Positions 49,980 to 52,503 of a DNA stretch of 59,829 nt are shown here, piece after piece. The notes beneath the pieces are model-generated. The model was not told where the DNA came from and searched no databases. It worked only from the letters and a program-made list of their open reading frames with translations. The translations under genes were made by a program, and so were the position numbers. The stretch comes from Patescibacteria group bacterium (GTDB taxonomy: Bacteria; Patescibacteriota; Minisyncoccia; Phycocordibacterales; UBA918). The stretch lies in contig JAZKFU010000003.1 of the NCBI GenBank assembly GCA_040386275.1, positions 112,554 through 172,382 on the forward strand, read 5' to 3'. Each line of letters opens with the position of its first letter. Within the stretch, counting starts at the first letter, position 1.

Positions 49980-50052
49980 GCGAGATTAGCTCAGCTGGTA
50001 GAGCGCCCGCATGACATGCGGTAGGTCACAGGTTCGAGCCCTGTATTTCGCA
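49980..50052 (+). tRNA. tRNA-Val(GAC)
   Basis: GCGAGAT TA GCTC AGCTGGTA GAGC G CCCGC ATGACAT GCGGT AGGTC ACAGG TTCGAGC CCTGT ATTTCGC A. Confidence 0.93.
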
Positions 50053-50244
50053 CAAAATTAAAACGCCCCTAAAGGGCGTTTTAATTTTGTGCGAAATAAG
50101 TATTGTGCCTGCGCACAATACGTCGGGGCTCGAAAAGCGGAGCGATGTTTTGGCTATTCCTAATGCCAAAACCGCGAGCTGTGTCCCGCGGCACTTATGA
50201 GCGTCAGCGAATTTGTGACCGTCAGGACAAGTCCTGTACTCTAC
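50053..50244 (+). repeat. tRNA-Val trailer element (25-bp-arm palindrome, 25-nt hairpin, inverted T-arm copy, variant module A)
   Basis: Arms 50044-50068/50074-50098; hairpin 50099-50123; CGGGGCTCGAA 50124-50134. Confidence 0.85.
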
Positions 50245-51119
50245 CCCACTACCTTCTCTACCGCCTTAATCACTCCCTCCTTACTCCCAGCCACAAAAAT
50301 AAATCCAGCTTTGTGACAAAATACAGCATCACTAATTCCTGAAATTTCGGCGAGTTCACCGTTAGTTAAACCTAACCATTCTTTTGGAAAGTTAACTCGC
50401 CCTTCAAAAGCTGCTTTTCCCGTAGTTACGGTTTTGGCTATCCAGTTATTATTTGATAATGGGTCATCAGGTTGCACCACTAGTAATACTTCTGGGTAAT
50501 CAGTACATACATTTGTCGAAACACCAATATCAAAAACGAGCACTCTTTTATCAGAAGTATTATTATAGACCTCGCGAACAAGCTCTTTCATTTTTTGTTC
50601 AGCTTGCTTTTTTACTATTATTCTCTTCAATAGTGCTCGAGCAAATTCTACCGCTTCACTAAAAGCTACATCATTATGTTTATTACTACCCCACTCAGGC
50701 AAAAATGATCGGGTGATTTGGTACAGTTCAAAGGGAGGAATATCCGGATTTTTAAGATCATAGAGCGATACTCCTTGATCGCCAGCATCAACCGCGAGAA
50801 CCATACTGCGTTCAATGTCATCAGCATTTTCTTTACTCCCGGCCACAGACTCCCCATACTCTTTCCAAACCAATCCAAACGCGGCGTACGGAATGCCGTT
50901 ATCACGAACCGGCCCACCAATTTGATGATGATCAAAACGCTTGGTCGCTACATCATAGACTCCGCCCACATCCACTACGATATCAGCGGACGCCAATAGC
51001 GACTCATCACGAGTGCGAATTATTTCGACATTCTCAACTCCATGCACCAGCTGCAGGGTTGCTACCGCAAACACATCATCCGTATGAAATCCCCCACTAT
51101 GAGTAGCTATTTTTATCAT
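50241..51119 (-). CDS. MYG1 family 3'-5' exonuclease (DHH-like)
   Basis: ATHSGGFHTDDVFA, VVDVGG.YD..TKRFDHHQ, AVFCHKAGFI. Confidence 0.92.
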   Translation of the reverse strand: MIKIATHSGGFHTDDVFAVATLQLVHGVENVEIIRTRDESLLASADIVVDVGGVYDVATKRFDHHQIGGPVRDNGIPYAAFGLVWKEYGESVAGSKENADDIERSMVLAVDAGDQGVSLYDLKNPDIPPFELYQITRSFLPEWGSNKHNDVAFSEAVEFARALLKRIIVKKQAEQKMKELVREVYNNTSDKRVLVFDIGVSTNVCTDYPEVLLVVQPDDPLSNNNWIAKTVTTGKAAFEGRVNFPKEWLGLTNGELAEISGISDAVFCHKAGFIFVAGSKEGVIKAVEKVVG

Positions 51120-51189
51120 GCAAATTATTATATGTCATTTTAGTAAAAAACTCGCATCCTTGCATATTATTTAGTATAGTGACCGATAC

Positions 51190-51323
51190 GAGATCTAGCG
51201 GAATAGGTAGACGCGCGAATAAGGGTTAACAGTAGTATTGCGTCTGAGTAACCCCGAAAAACCCGGGTAACCAGCCCCAGCTCATAAGCGCAATAGTGTA
51301 GGGTGCAAATCCCTACCATCTCA
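51190..51323 (+). ncRNA. tRNA-like structured RNA (acceptor-like stem, Leu-type D loop, TGCAAAT T loop, expanded central domain with CTCATAA)
   Basis: GAGAT/ATCTC ends; GCGGAATAGGTAGACGC; TATTGCG/CGCAATA helix; GTAGGG-TGCAAAT-CCCTAC; ends 7 nt before the tsaD ATG. Confidence 0.6.
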
Positions 51324-51330
51324 TAAAATT

Positions 51331-52503
51331 ATGCGAATACTCTCAATCGAAACGTCATGTGACGAAACAGCCATTAGCCTCATTGAGGCACTAGGCGATT
51401 TTCCTACGGCTACCTACGAAATCCTGGGAAACGCCCTGCATTCGCAGATTGATATTCACGCCGAATTTGGTGGTGTGTTCCCGCAAGTCGCTAAACGTGA
51501 ACATGCACTTGCACTCGTGCCGATGTTAATCAAAGCTTTAACCGAAGCAGAATTATTAACGGAAACTCCAACCGCTCTTGGCGACGACCTGACAGAGAAG
51601 ATTACGACGTTACTCTCACGGGAAGACGGACTCGCTCCGTTTTTATTAGAGTTTTTTAGTAAATACTCTTTACCAGAAATTGACTTAATTGCCGTTACCT
51701 CTGGTCCGGGACTGGAGCCTGCACTATGGGTTGGAATTAGTTTTGCTAAAGCTCTTAATGCGGTCCTTGGTTGTCCCGTAGTGCCCGTCAATCATATGGA
51801 GGGACATGTGCTTGCTTCTCTCTATGATGTGGAAATAGATAACGCCATTGCACCGATATCGTTCCCCGCTATTGCGTTGCTTATTTCTGGCGGACATACG
51901 GAACTTGTATTGATGAAAGATTGGGGCAACTATGAAAAAATTGGTGAGACACGAGATGATGCCGTGGGCGAAGCGTTTGATAAAGTAGCACGTATGATGA
52001 AATTACCGTACCCAGGAGGACCAGAAATTGGTCGCCGAGCTGAGATTGCGCGCAAAGCAAATGTAGCGCCCTACAAGGAGGTCTTGCCTCGTCCGATGAT
52101 ACACAGTGATGATTTTGATTTTTCTTTTTCTGGACTTAAGACGGCCGTGCGATATGCTATTGATGATACAGAATTAACTGACGAACAAAAAAATGCTTTG
52201 GCGCGCGATTTTGAAGATGCCGCTATTGAAGTCTTATTAAAGAAAACGAAAAAAGCGATTGACCACTATAATGCAAAGACGCTTATTATTGGCGGTGGCG
52301 TGAGTGCGAATAATTACTTACGTCAGACCTTTACCGAATCACTTTTGGCGTCACATCCAGATGTAGAGATTTATCTGCCCCACCGTAACCTCTCTACCGA
52401 CAACAGCGTCATGATTGCCTTGGCCGGCCACGCCCAACTCACCACCTCCCGCTCCGCTGGCGCCGTAGCCTACATTACCGCCTCCGGTAACCGCTCGTTG
52501 TAA
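51331..52503 (+). CDS. tsaD: tRNA N6-threonylcarbamoyladenosine biosynthesis protein TsaD
   Basis: ILSIETSCDET, GGVFPQVAKREH, VNHMEGH, ISGGHTEL, DDAVGEAFDK, FSFSGLKT, TDNSVMIA. Confidence 0.96.
   Translation: MRILSIETSCDETAISLIEALGDFPTATYEILGNALHSQIDIHAEFGGVFPQVAKREHALALVPMLIKALTEAELLTETPTALGDDLTEKITTLLSREDGLAPFLLEFFSKYSLPEIDLIAVTSGPGLEPALWVGISFAKALNAVLGCPVVPVNHMEGHVLASLYDVEIDNAIAPISFPAIALLISGGHTELVLMKDWGNYEKIGETRDDAVGEAFDKVARMMKLPYPGGPEIGRRAEIARKANVAPYKEVLPRPMIHSDDFDFSFSGLKTAVRYAIDDTELTDEQKNALARDFEDAAIEVLLKKTKKAIDHYNAKTLIIGGGVSANNYLRQTFTESLLASHPDVEIYLPHRNLSTDNSVMIALAGHAQLTTSRSAGAVAYITASGNRSL

Follow-up and report, generated by a model that had tools for sequence, protein, structure and literature searches.

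The region directly upstream of tsaD in a 59,829-nucleotide (nt) stretch of DNA from a Patescibacteria group bacterium (contig JAZKFU010000003.1) contains a conserved small RNA in which a degenerate tRNA-like shell carries a pseudoknotted module in place of the anticodon arm. The whole stretch is called the window below; coordinates throughout are positions within it, and the element occupies positions 51190-51323 of the plus strand. The module is an uncatalogued RNA family, mainly phage-borne and missing from Rfam 15, and it is the constant part of these RNAs, the carrier being the part that varies. We judge the odds to be somewhat better than even, with a probability of about 0.55, that the element is the gene for a stable small RNA of this family and is neither a tRNA nor a sensor specific to tsaD. 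The small RNA probably acts in trans.

Results

The element has a conserved tRNA-like shell

The element lies in the intergenic region 51120-51330, between a minus-strand open reading frame (ORF) at 50241-51119 and a plus-strand ORF whose product is TsaD (TIGR03723, 340.9 bits compared with a cut-off of 296.1). A first-pass annotation made from the window alone had described paired ends, a Leu-type D region, a T arm with the loop TGCAAAT, a central helix, the heptamer CTCATAA, and a 7-nt spacer before tsaD, and each of these lies where it had been placed (Table 1). Its account of the paired ends and arms needed adjustment, as the acceptor-like stem is 6 base pairs (bp) long, with a C-C apposition innermost in the window, and the T stem also has 6 bp. 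The shell retains a 12-bp acceptor/T stack and an elbow formed by the GG of the D loop and the C of the T loop, and its D arm resembles those of the window's own tRNA-Leu genes. Where a tRNA would have its anticodon and variable arms, the element has a module of 79-80 nt (51216-51295).

Homologues of the element were collected from 5 of 80 species-level genomes retrieved through TsaD and from 11 contigs found in a metagenome pattern scan, which together with the window give 15 distinct sequences. As the genomes were reached through TsaD and the metagenomes through exact patterns, diverged members, and copies elsewhere in element-less genomes, were beyond the reach of this search. The homologues sit 5-10 nt upstream of tsaD, the sole exception being locus L026, in which the distance is 60 nt.

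Covariation among these 15 sequences supports the helices of the shell, which had a score of 0.283 compared with 0.124 for shuffled alignments (none of 500 shuffles reached the observed value) and at most 0.115 when partner strands were slid. One acceptor pair is AU in 10 sequences, UA in 3, and GU in 2, and the innermost acceptor pair, mismatched in the window, is G-C in the 14 other sequences. The first pair of the D stem also covaries (AU 7, GC 6, GU 1), and three of the six T-stem pairs have compensatory changes. The T-loop sequence is near-invariant in the clade (L001 has UGCAAUU). A seventh acceptor pair is unsupported, being unpaired in 12 of the 15 sequences. Because G-U pairs occur in the helices, the plus strand is the functional strand. 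Folding of the single sequence is unremarkable (z = -1.79).

The module is a separate RNA family with a predicted pseudoknot

Three near-invariant strands define the module: S1, (C/G)GAAUAAGGGUU-NNN-AGUA; S2, GAGUAACCCCGAAA-N-AC(C/A)C; and S3, (G)CUC-N-UA-R. All three are present in the window, where S2 is of the GAGUAACCCCGAAA-N-ACCC type and S3 of the GCUC-N-UAR type. The GAAUAAGGGUU and AGUA segments of S1 are identical in 24 of 24 sequences, and S2 is near-invariant across all 39 family members. A covariance model built from the module (R1) was used to re-align the 39 members before pairs were counted, as MAFFT had given inconsistent registers for helix H1. When applied to the window, R1 reported a single copy at 51216-51294 (85.2 bits, E = 5e-17); it found no second copy there and none in the element-less tsaD loci.

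Covariation also supports H1 and the pair that closes the S1 hairpin. The sequence of H1 differs in nearly every lineage, and its pairing is always retained: for 21 distinct H1 helices, the mean is 6.8 bp when a strand is matched to its own partner and 2.7 bp when it is matched to the partner from another sequence, and each of the six modelled pairs is represented by 4-6 pair types. The S1 closing pair is CG in 27 members, GC in 9, and UA in 1, and is unpaired in 1. Together, H1 and this pair have a covariation score of 0.636, compared with 0.158 after shuffling (0 of 500 shuffles reached the observed score) and at most 0.086 with slid partners.

Two other predicted helices are conserved in sequence as well as in pairing. 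P4, formed by GAG of S2 and CUC of S3, is invariant (GC 35-36, AU 35). RNAalifold independently proposed pairing between GGGUU of S1 and AACCC of S2, which is kept in 39 of 39 sequences with both strands invariant; a single exception, the change of a U-A pair to U-G in L004, is consistent with the proposal. These features suggest a module fold in which the S1 hairpin would contact the loop of a long H1+P4 hairpin, as an H-type pseudoknot or a loop-loop contact. The GAA and AGUA that flank the S1 closing pair may form something like a loop-E/bulged-G motif, and the A-rich strand CGAAA-N-ACCC comes after in the module. RNAalifold also adds two pairs to GGGUU:AACCC (51229-51230 with 51248-51249 in the window, the latter being the G-U of GAGU). 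Such an extended pseudoknot would compete with the GAG:CUC helix and could represent an alternative conformation; GAGU is invariant.

The remainder of the module is variable in defined places. The position of the P5 mini-hairpin is taken elsewhere by a 2-bp version, by long hairpins (L010, L112, and L119), or, in permuted copies, by the outer helix, and the loop within S3 is found as AUAA, GUAA, AUAG, AUAC, UUAG, or UUAU. In T4-like, T5-like, and several other versions the order of the parts is permuted, and it runs outer helix, GCUC-NUAR, H1, linker, S1, H1', GAGUAACCCCGAAA-N-ACCC, outer helix. The ends of these copies are at the P5 position, and H1 is closed. Because the connections at the junctions match those of the window (GCUC to NUAR to H1; H1' to GAGU; S1 to H1'), the two orders are related by circular permutation.

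These findings change the interpretation of CTCATAA, which had been read as the anticodon loop of a tRNA for Met or Ile2. Its CUC is predicted to pair with GAG in P4, and the remaining nucleotides would form a 4-nt internal loop. The anticodon-like triplet is CAU in the window, CGU in L004, L082, L086, L088, and L093, and CUU in most phage copies. In addition, the putative anticodon stem, H1, has 5-8 bp (12 at its longest extension) rather than 5 bp, and 20 conserved nt separate it from the D arm. CUCAUAA cannot be a loop closed by H1, because this strand lies 5' of H1 in the permuted copies.

The element is not recognized as a tRNA or as a member of a known RNA family

In the window ARAGORN called nine ordinary tRNAs and, by default or in intron mode, nothing at the element. 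When its threshold was lowered to 80%, ARAGORN forced a tRNA-Met(cat) with a 64-nt "intron" at the non-canonical position 27/28. With no tRNA called at normal settings, a triplet that varies, and a stem of the wrong length, the earlier suggestion of an intron-containing or degenerate tRNA(CAU) is not supported.

No Rfam 15 family matched the element at its gathering score. At E ≤ 10, the sole plus-strand match in a 301-nt slice was to a plant-virus tRNA-like element, which scored 10.5 bits (E = 9.4; gathering score 40) across the T arm. Six shell-less copies of the module, as well as class-B and permuted copies, matched no Rfam 15 family at gathering score or at E ≤ 10. Conserved, structured, and absent from Rfam 15 even at that permissive threshold, the element fits the third possibility that had been raised for it, a new tRNA-like noncoding RNA.

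The module is present in phages, often among tRNA genes

The module is also found without the shell, bounded by a plain closing helix, in 21 viral contigs and 6 non-tsaD metagenome contigs. A BLAST search of 50,697 phage records placed it in ~50-60 cultured phages, at a spot that is nearly always unannotated. These include the T4-like Mosigvirus, T5-like phages (which infect Klebsiella, Pectobacterium, and Proteus), RaK2/K64-1 jumbo phages, Erwinia Hena1-like phages, Pseudomonas and Rhizobium phages, and others. The module was absent from 5,426 complete E. coli genomes. When the ORFs within 4 kb of 40 copies were compared all against all by BLAST, no conserved protein partner was found beyond closely related phages. 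No description of the module was found in the full-text literature when its conserved strands were sought as literal strings.

The phage copies are usually inside or beside tRNA arrays. The module lies between tRNA-Asn and tRNA-Met in L083 and just before tRNA-Trp in L095, and in the T4-like Mosigvirus mogra (L121 1463-1563) it is flanked by tRNA-Met and tRNA-Arg; in the T5-like Klebsiella phage IME260, 8 nt separate its start from the CCA of the preceding tRNA-Asp. The IME260 copy is followed, ~130 nt downstream, by an unannotated region (L120 1696-1780, plus strand) that matches either tRNA-Sec below threshold (35.7 bits; the gathering score is 47) or, weakly, the general tRNA family (29.5 bits). 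The L095 array includes a tRNA with a CUA (amber-reading) anticodon, which ARAGORN labels tRNA-Pyl. In the same contig (755-908, minus strand), an Rfam tRNA match of 43.4 bits spans 154 nt, corresponding to an ~80-nt insertion, and the module is absent from this insertion.

One phage copy resembles the window in its carrier. In phage contig L114, the module is embedded in a bona fide tRNA scaffold that matches the Rfam tRNA model (34.1 bits, gathering score 29), with 69 nt replacing the anticodon arm. This scaffold has 7/5 acceptor/T stems, U8, the T loop UUCGAAU, a Leu-type D arm, and A73, and it is a second, independent tRNA-embedded copy. A targeted scan for further phage copies in tRNA scaffolds with a canonical T loop returned only L114. 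The shell-less copy of Rhizobium phage RHEph12 (MW980064.1; L119 1490-1625) has AAUAGGAAGAAGCG before S1 and CCUUCCUCUCAUUUU after H1, which resemble the D loop and the acceptor 3' strand of the Kaiserbacteria element; to judge from this likeness, it may be a decayed tRNA scaffold. The RHEph12 copy also has the variant GAGAAACCCC.

The element is linked to tsaD within one clade and has been lost repeatedly

A -10 box is conserved in all loci, with or without the element, and this conservation suggests that it drives the element and, through read-through, tsaD. A consensus promoter scan made no call at this box, as a good -35 box is absent. In element-bearing loci, the -10 box is 7-9 nt before the first G of the element. 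In element-less loci of the Kaiserbacteria-like clade, the box (TATAGT or TATAAC) is only 6-13 nt from the tsaD ATG. Based on this spacing, tsaD in the clade would be leaderless or nearly so. On its plus strand, the window lacks both a terminator and a Shine-Dalgarno sequence, and a terminator/antiterminator pair was not found.

Locus L026 (identical to L089) is arranged differently. Here the element is followed by a 14-bp hairpin and T run that make up a constitutive-looking intrinsic terminator, after which tsaD has a separate -10-like box. In this locus, the small RNA forms an independent transcription unit.

On a tree of TsaD proteins, the element is found in a single clade, where its distribution is patchy, with parsimony requiring six changes whether these are gains or losses; the TsaD proteins of element-bearing genomes are 60-88% identical. 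Three loci without the element (L002, L005, and L009) retain 7-10 nt of the 5' part of the D arm directly after the -10 box: L002 has TATAGTGGCGGAATT followed by ATG, L005 has TATAGTGGCGGATACC..., and L009 has TATAGTGACGACT followed by ATG. The 5' junction is explained by a deletion that ran from the AGTG of TATAGTG to the one in GAGAAGTG. From these remnants, we conclude that the element is ancestral in the clade and was repeatedly lost through deletion, and therefore that tsaD does not need it. Its location beside tsaD is most likely inherited within this one clade and dispensable.

The annotation had also proposed that the element is a feedback leader that senses the machinery for N6-threonylcarbamoyladenosine (t6A), and we found no positive evidence for this. 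Phage copies have no tsaD nearby, the L026 RNA ends at a terminator, and relatives have deleted the element. The tRNA-shelled form is upstream of tsaD in 15 of 15 sequences; the module itself is also found in phage tRNA arrays and elsewhere. The linkage within the clade, together with the invariant U-A of the CUNUAR strand, leaves a small residual possibility of t6A sensing.

Features of the locus

The coordinates of the parts of the element and of its flanking signals are collected in Table 1. The divergent ORF at 50241-51119 encodes 292 amino acids, and no NCBIfam model matched it at E ≤ 1e-5. In several related loci, the upstream neighbor of the element is a different gene on the opposite strand. 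None of the nine tRNA genes of the window (e.g. 49980-50053) encodes a 3' CCA, and the organism must therefore add CCA after transcription.

Table 1. Parts of the tsaD-upstream element and flanking signals, in window coordinates
Feature	Coordinates	Strand	Remarks
-10 box TATAGT	51175-51180	+	TATAGT or TATAAC conserved in all loci
Acceptor-like stem, 5' strand GAGAUC	51190-51195	+	Pairs with 51317-51322
Class-II (Leu-type) D arm GCGGAATAGGTAGACGC	51198-51214	+	3-bp stem GCG/CGC; 11-nt loop with GG
S1 hairpin loop C-GAAUAAGGGUUAACAGUA-G	51216-51235	+	Closed by covarying C51216:G51235
Pseudoknot 5' strand GGGUU (predicted)	51223-51227	+	Inside S1 loop
Helix H1, 5' strand UAUUGCGU (DNA TATTGCGT)	51236-51243	+	Pairs with 51288-51295; 8 bp in window
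S2 strand GAGUAACCCCGAAAAACCC	51246-51264	+	GAGU is P4 5' strand; A-rich CGAAAAACCC segment at its end
Pseudoknot 3' strand AACCC (predicted)	51250-51254	+	Inside S2
P5 mini-hairpin GGG-UAACCAG-CCCC (predicted)	51265-51278	+	Variable position of module
S3 strand GCUC-AUAA	51280-51287	+	P4 3' strand plus 4-nt internal loop; contains CUCAUAA (51281-51287)
Helix H1, 3' strand GCGCAAUA (DNA GCGCAATA)	51288-51295	+	Pairs with 51236-51243
T-like arm	51298-51316	+	6-bp stem GUAGGG/CCCUAC; loop UGCAAAU; G at U55 position
Acceptor-like stem, 3' strand CAUCUC, plus unpaired A51323 (discriminator position)	51317-51323	+	No CCA encoded
Spacer, 7 nt, A/U-rich	51324-51330	+	No Shine-Dalgarno sequence; 5-10 nt and A/U-rich in homologues except L026
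tsaD, ATG at 51331	51331-52503	+	Predicted to be co-transcribed with element; probably leaderless in element-less relatives

Discussion

A model for the element as a small RNA gene

The organization of the locus suggests how a small RNA of this type could be produced. Judging from the spacing, the tsaD -10 box would direct transcription to begin no more than ~2 nt from the first G of the element. The tRNA-like shell would lend stability to the RNA, and the 12-bp stack and elbow would let RNase Z-type enzymes cut after A51323. The addition of CCA would also be allowed, as for the window tRNAs, which likewise have no encoded CCA. Such a cut would free the small RNA and leave a tsaD mRNA with a 7-nt leader, which would restore the near-leaderless state seen in relatives. 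The module would then act in trans on a partner that may be conserved across bacteria, because its sequence is near-identical between phages that infect Enterobacteria, Rhizobium, or Pseudomonas and this bacterium, a member of the candidate phyla radiation (CPR) of the Kaiserbacteria/Paceibacteria type.

Several points weigh against this model of a free, stable small RNA. The transcription start, cleavage by RNase Z, and a stable RNA product are putative features. The shell is weak as a tRNA, as the Rfam tRNA model RF00005 does not match the window at its gathering score or at E ≤ 10, and when a perfect Leu anticodon arm was grafted onto the shell ARAGORN called the product only at a 90% threshold. 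The strands of the predicted pseudoknot and of P4 are invariant and so give no covariation signal. Finally, all 15 tRNA-shelled copies of the Kaiserbacteria type adjoin tsaD, and this linkage could be explained by function instead of inheritance.

Alternative explanations

Some explanations assign an activity to the RNA itself. One possibility, which we hold only tentatively, is that the 75-80-nt module represents a new class of functional RNA that has its own activity, either as a small ribozyme or as a mimic of an anticodon stem-loop; in the latter version, H1 and the invariant C-U-C-N-U-A-R strand would display a bulge that resembles U36-A37. That the module is specifically a new self-cleaving or otherwise catalytic RNA, which would process phage tRNA-array transcripts and the element-tsaD co-transcript, we consider unlikely. 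Its compact, pseudoknotted core of ~75 nt with ~35 near-invariant nucleotides, the freedom of its ends to open one helix or the other, a trait known from hammerhead and twister ribozymes, and the lack of a fixed protein-gene neighbor are all consistent with catalysis, as is its enrichment in phages beside tRNAs, a setting shared with the theta ribozymes, which are like those of hepatitis delta virus (HDV) (PMC10879173). However, no Rfam ribozyme family matched window, shell-less, or permuted copies at E ≤ 10, the single-pseudoknot topology is unlike HDV-like and twister folds, and the first C of S1 covaries with its partner and so cannot be an invariant catalytic residue. There is also one copy per genome, and RNase P and 3'-end enzymes can already release the module from tRNA arrays. 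Fits to specific catalytic or regulatory RNAs failed. In a hand fit to the hammerhead core, the equivalents of the essential G5 and G8 were absent; the helix order did not fit an HDV-like/theta fold, in which the candidate catalytic C is the residue that covaries; and weak sequence likenesses to strands of TPP and SAM-I riboswitches, to P15-P17 of RNase P, and to loop B of the hairpin ribozyme were supported by no Rfam model. A transfer-messenger RNA (tmRNA) was rejected as well, as the tmRNA mode of ARAGORN and Rfam were negative and there is no tag reading frame.

A different proposal confines the function to tsaD, with the element as a cis-acting, tRNA-mimicking leader that senses TsaD/TsaB/TsaE or t6A status and tunes tsaD. 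The t6A enzymes require a U36-A37 context, and S3 always presents one by reading C-U-C-N-U-A-R before a helix strand; the position of all 15 distinct tRNA-shelled copies directly upstream of tsaD also favors such a role. In the minimum-free-energy fold, moreover, the GAGA of the acceptor can instead pair with a UCUC in tsaD codons 4-5, but this UCUC is fixed by conserved ILS codons and is found in element-less loci too. The module, including U-A-R, is equally conserved in phage copies with no tsaD nearby, the L026 RNA terminates before a tsaD that has its own -10 box, and at least three relatives have deleted the element. As the window also has neither a Shine-Dalgarno sequence to sequester nor a terminator/antiterminator pair, we find this leader improbable. 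It is also quite unlikely, in our assessment, that the element is a selfish or decaying phage-derived insertion between the tsaD promoter and start codon that is tolerated through tRNA-like processing and has no host function. Such an origin is suggested by the patchy distribution (the TsaD tree needs six gains or as many losses), the repeated loss through deletion, the concentration of the module family in phages, and the C-C acceptor mismatch of the window copy. Against it, the near-invariant core and the compensatory changes across genomes whose TsaD proteins have diverged to the extent given above indicate purifying selection on the RNA, there is a single copy per locus and per window, and no target-site duplications or terminal repeats are present. 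The remaining proposal, a functional tRNA(CAU) for Met or Ile2 interrupted by one or two unconventional introns, is highly improbable. It draws on the tRNA-Met that ARAGORN calls at 80%, on the tRNA-Met that ARAGORN calls at a 90% threshold when both conserved strands are deleted in silico, and on the resemblance of H1 followed by CUCAUAA to an anticodon stem-loop. Nevertheless, ARAGORN at default and Rfam make no call, the triplet is CAU, CGU, or CUU over an H1 of 5-8 bp, and two segments (20 nt and ~45 nt, at positions 26/27 and 31/32) would need to be removed. No Rfam intron family matched these inserted segments, and we know of no bacterial machinery for removing such segments at those positions. 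The T loop lacks U55, the acceptor/T arms are 6/6 and not 7/5, permuted and shell-less copies cannot give a tRNA, and the "intron" is far better conserved than the "exons," the reverse of what is seen in spliced spacers. We therefore retain the small RNA gene as the preferred explanation of the element, at the strength given at the outset.

Comparison with known RNAs

In its genomic context, the module is closest to the species 1 and 2 RNAs of phage T4 (rnaC and rnaD) and to the GOLLD and ROOL RNAs, and the module itself is a new family. The T4 species 1 and 2 RNAs are, like the module, phage tRNA-cluster RNAs; the T4 pair is small, stable, and matured with tRNAs. Judged by its sequence, T4 rnaC has at its end a tRNA-like T arm (CCGGGUUCGAAUCCCGG) and an acceptor-like stem. 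The genes for rnaC and rnaD (L122 2909-3172, minus strand) are beside tRNA-Arg, and the mogra module is between tRNA-Met and tRNA-Arg. When R1 was run with filters off over the T4 tRNA region, the best score was 10.6 bits (E = 0.28), elsewhere in the locus, and the S1, S2, and S3 strands are absent. On current evidence, rnaC and rnaD are thus analogues of the module in context and not homologues. To our knowledge, what these two T4 RNAs do has gone unexplained since the 1970s.

GOLLD and ROOL are structured RNAs of phages and prophages that are often beside tRNA genes, have no consistent protein-gene partner, and are of unknown function (PMC5737381). They differ from the module in being 500-800 nt long and in forming large multimeric assemblies, whereas the module has ~75 nt and no Rfam match to either. 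The HDV-like theta ribozymes are small pseudoknotted RNAs of phages, often of recoding phages, and only a few nucleotides separate them from tRNA genes (PMC10879173). The module-bearing contig L095 is comparable in having a tRNA with a CUA anticodon. HDV-like ribozymes form a nested double pseudoknot; the module, in contrast, has a single pseudoknot, no invariant catalytic C, and no Rfam match to the HDV family.

The shell invites comparison with other tRNA-like RNAs. In tmRNA, YrlA, and plant-virus tRNA-like structures, a tRNA top half is joined to a non-tRNA module, and the tRNA part is used by tRNA-processing enzymes. The element shares this design, a tRNA top half combined with another module, but has no Rfam match to tmRNA or YrlA, and its ends form the acceptor with the module replacing the anticodon arm, which is the reverse of YrlA. 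Like the thrS operator of E. coli, the element resembles a tRNA and precedes a gene that encodes an enzyme acting on tRNA. The thrS operator, however, overlaps the ribosome-binding site and mimics an anticodon arm with a conserved anticodon, whereas the triplet of the element varies, there is no Shine-Dalgarno sequence, transcription can terminate before the gene (L026), and the module occurs without the gene. The tRNA-embedded module has the same design as the tRNA scaffolds that engineers use to express aptamers.

Implications

For annotation, the element should not be called a tRNA(CAU) gene. The tRNA-embedded versions are natural cases of a functional RNA module in a tRNA scaffold. If the module is a functional class of its own, phages deliver it from tRNA arrays, and Kaiserbacteria and one phage mount it in a natural tRNA scaffold. 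If it is an anticodon stem-loop mimic, its possible partners include enzymes whose substrates are the anticodon loops of tRNAs that decode ANN codons, for example the t6A machinery or phage-defense anticodon nucleases.

The location of the module in tRNA clusters recalls the question raised by the T4 species 1 and 2 RNAs and gives that question a conserved, structured, and testable object. Although missing from Rfam 15, the family is present in tractable phages (Mosigvirus on E. coli K-12, T5-like, and RaK2-like phages) and in a CPR bacterium. In the latter, the arrangement upstream of tsaD suggests how a leaderless gene may tolerate an RNA gene at its transcription start, with tRNA-type processing as the punctuation between the two.

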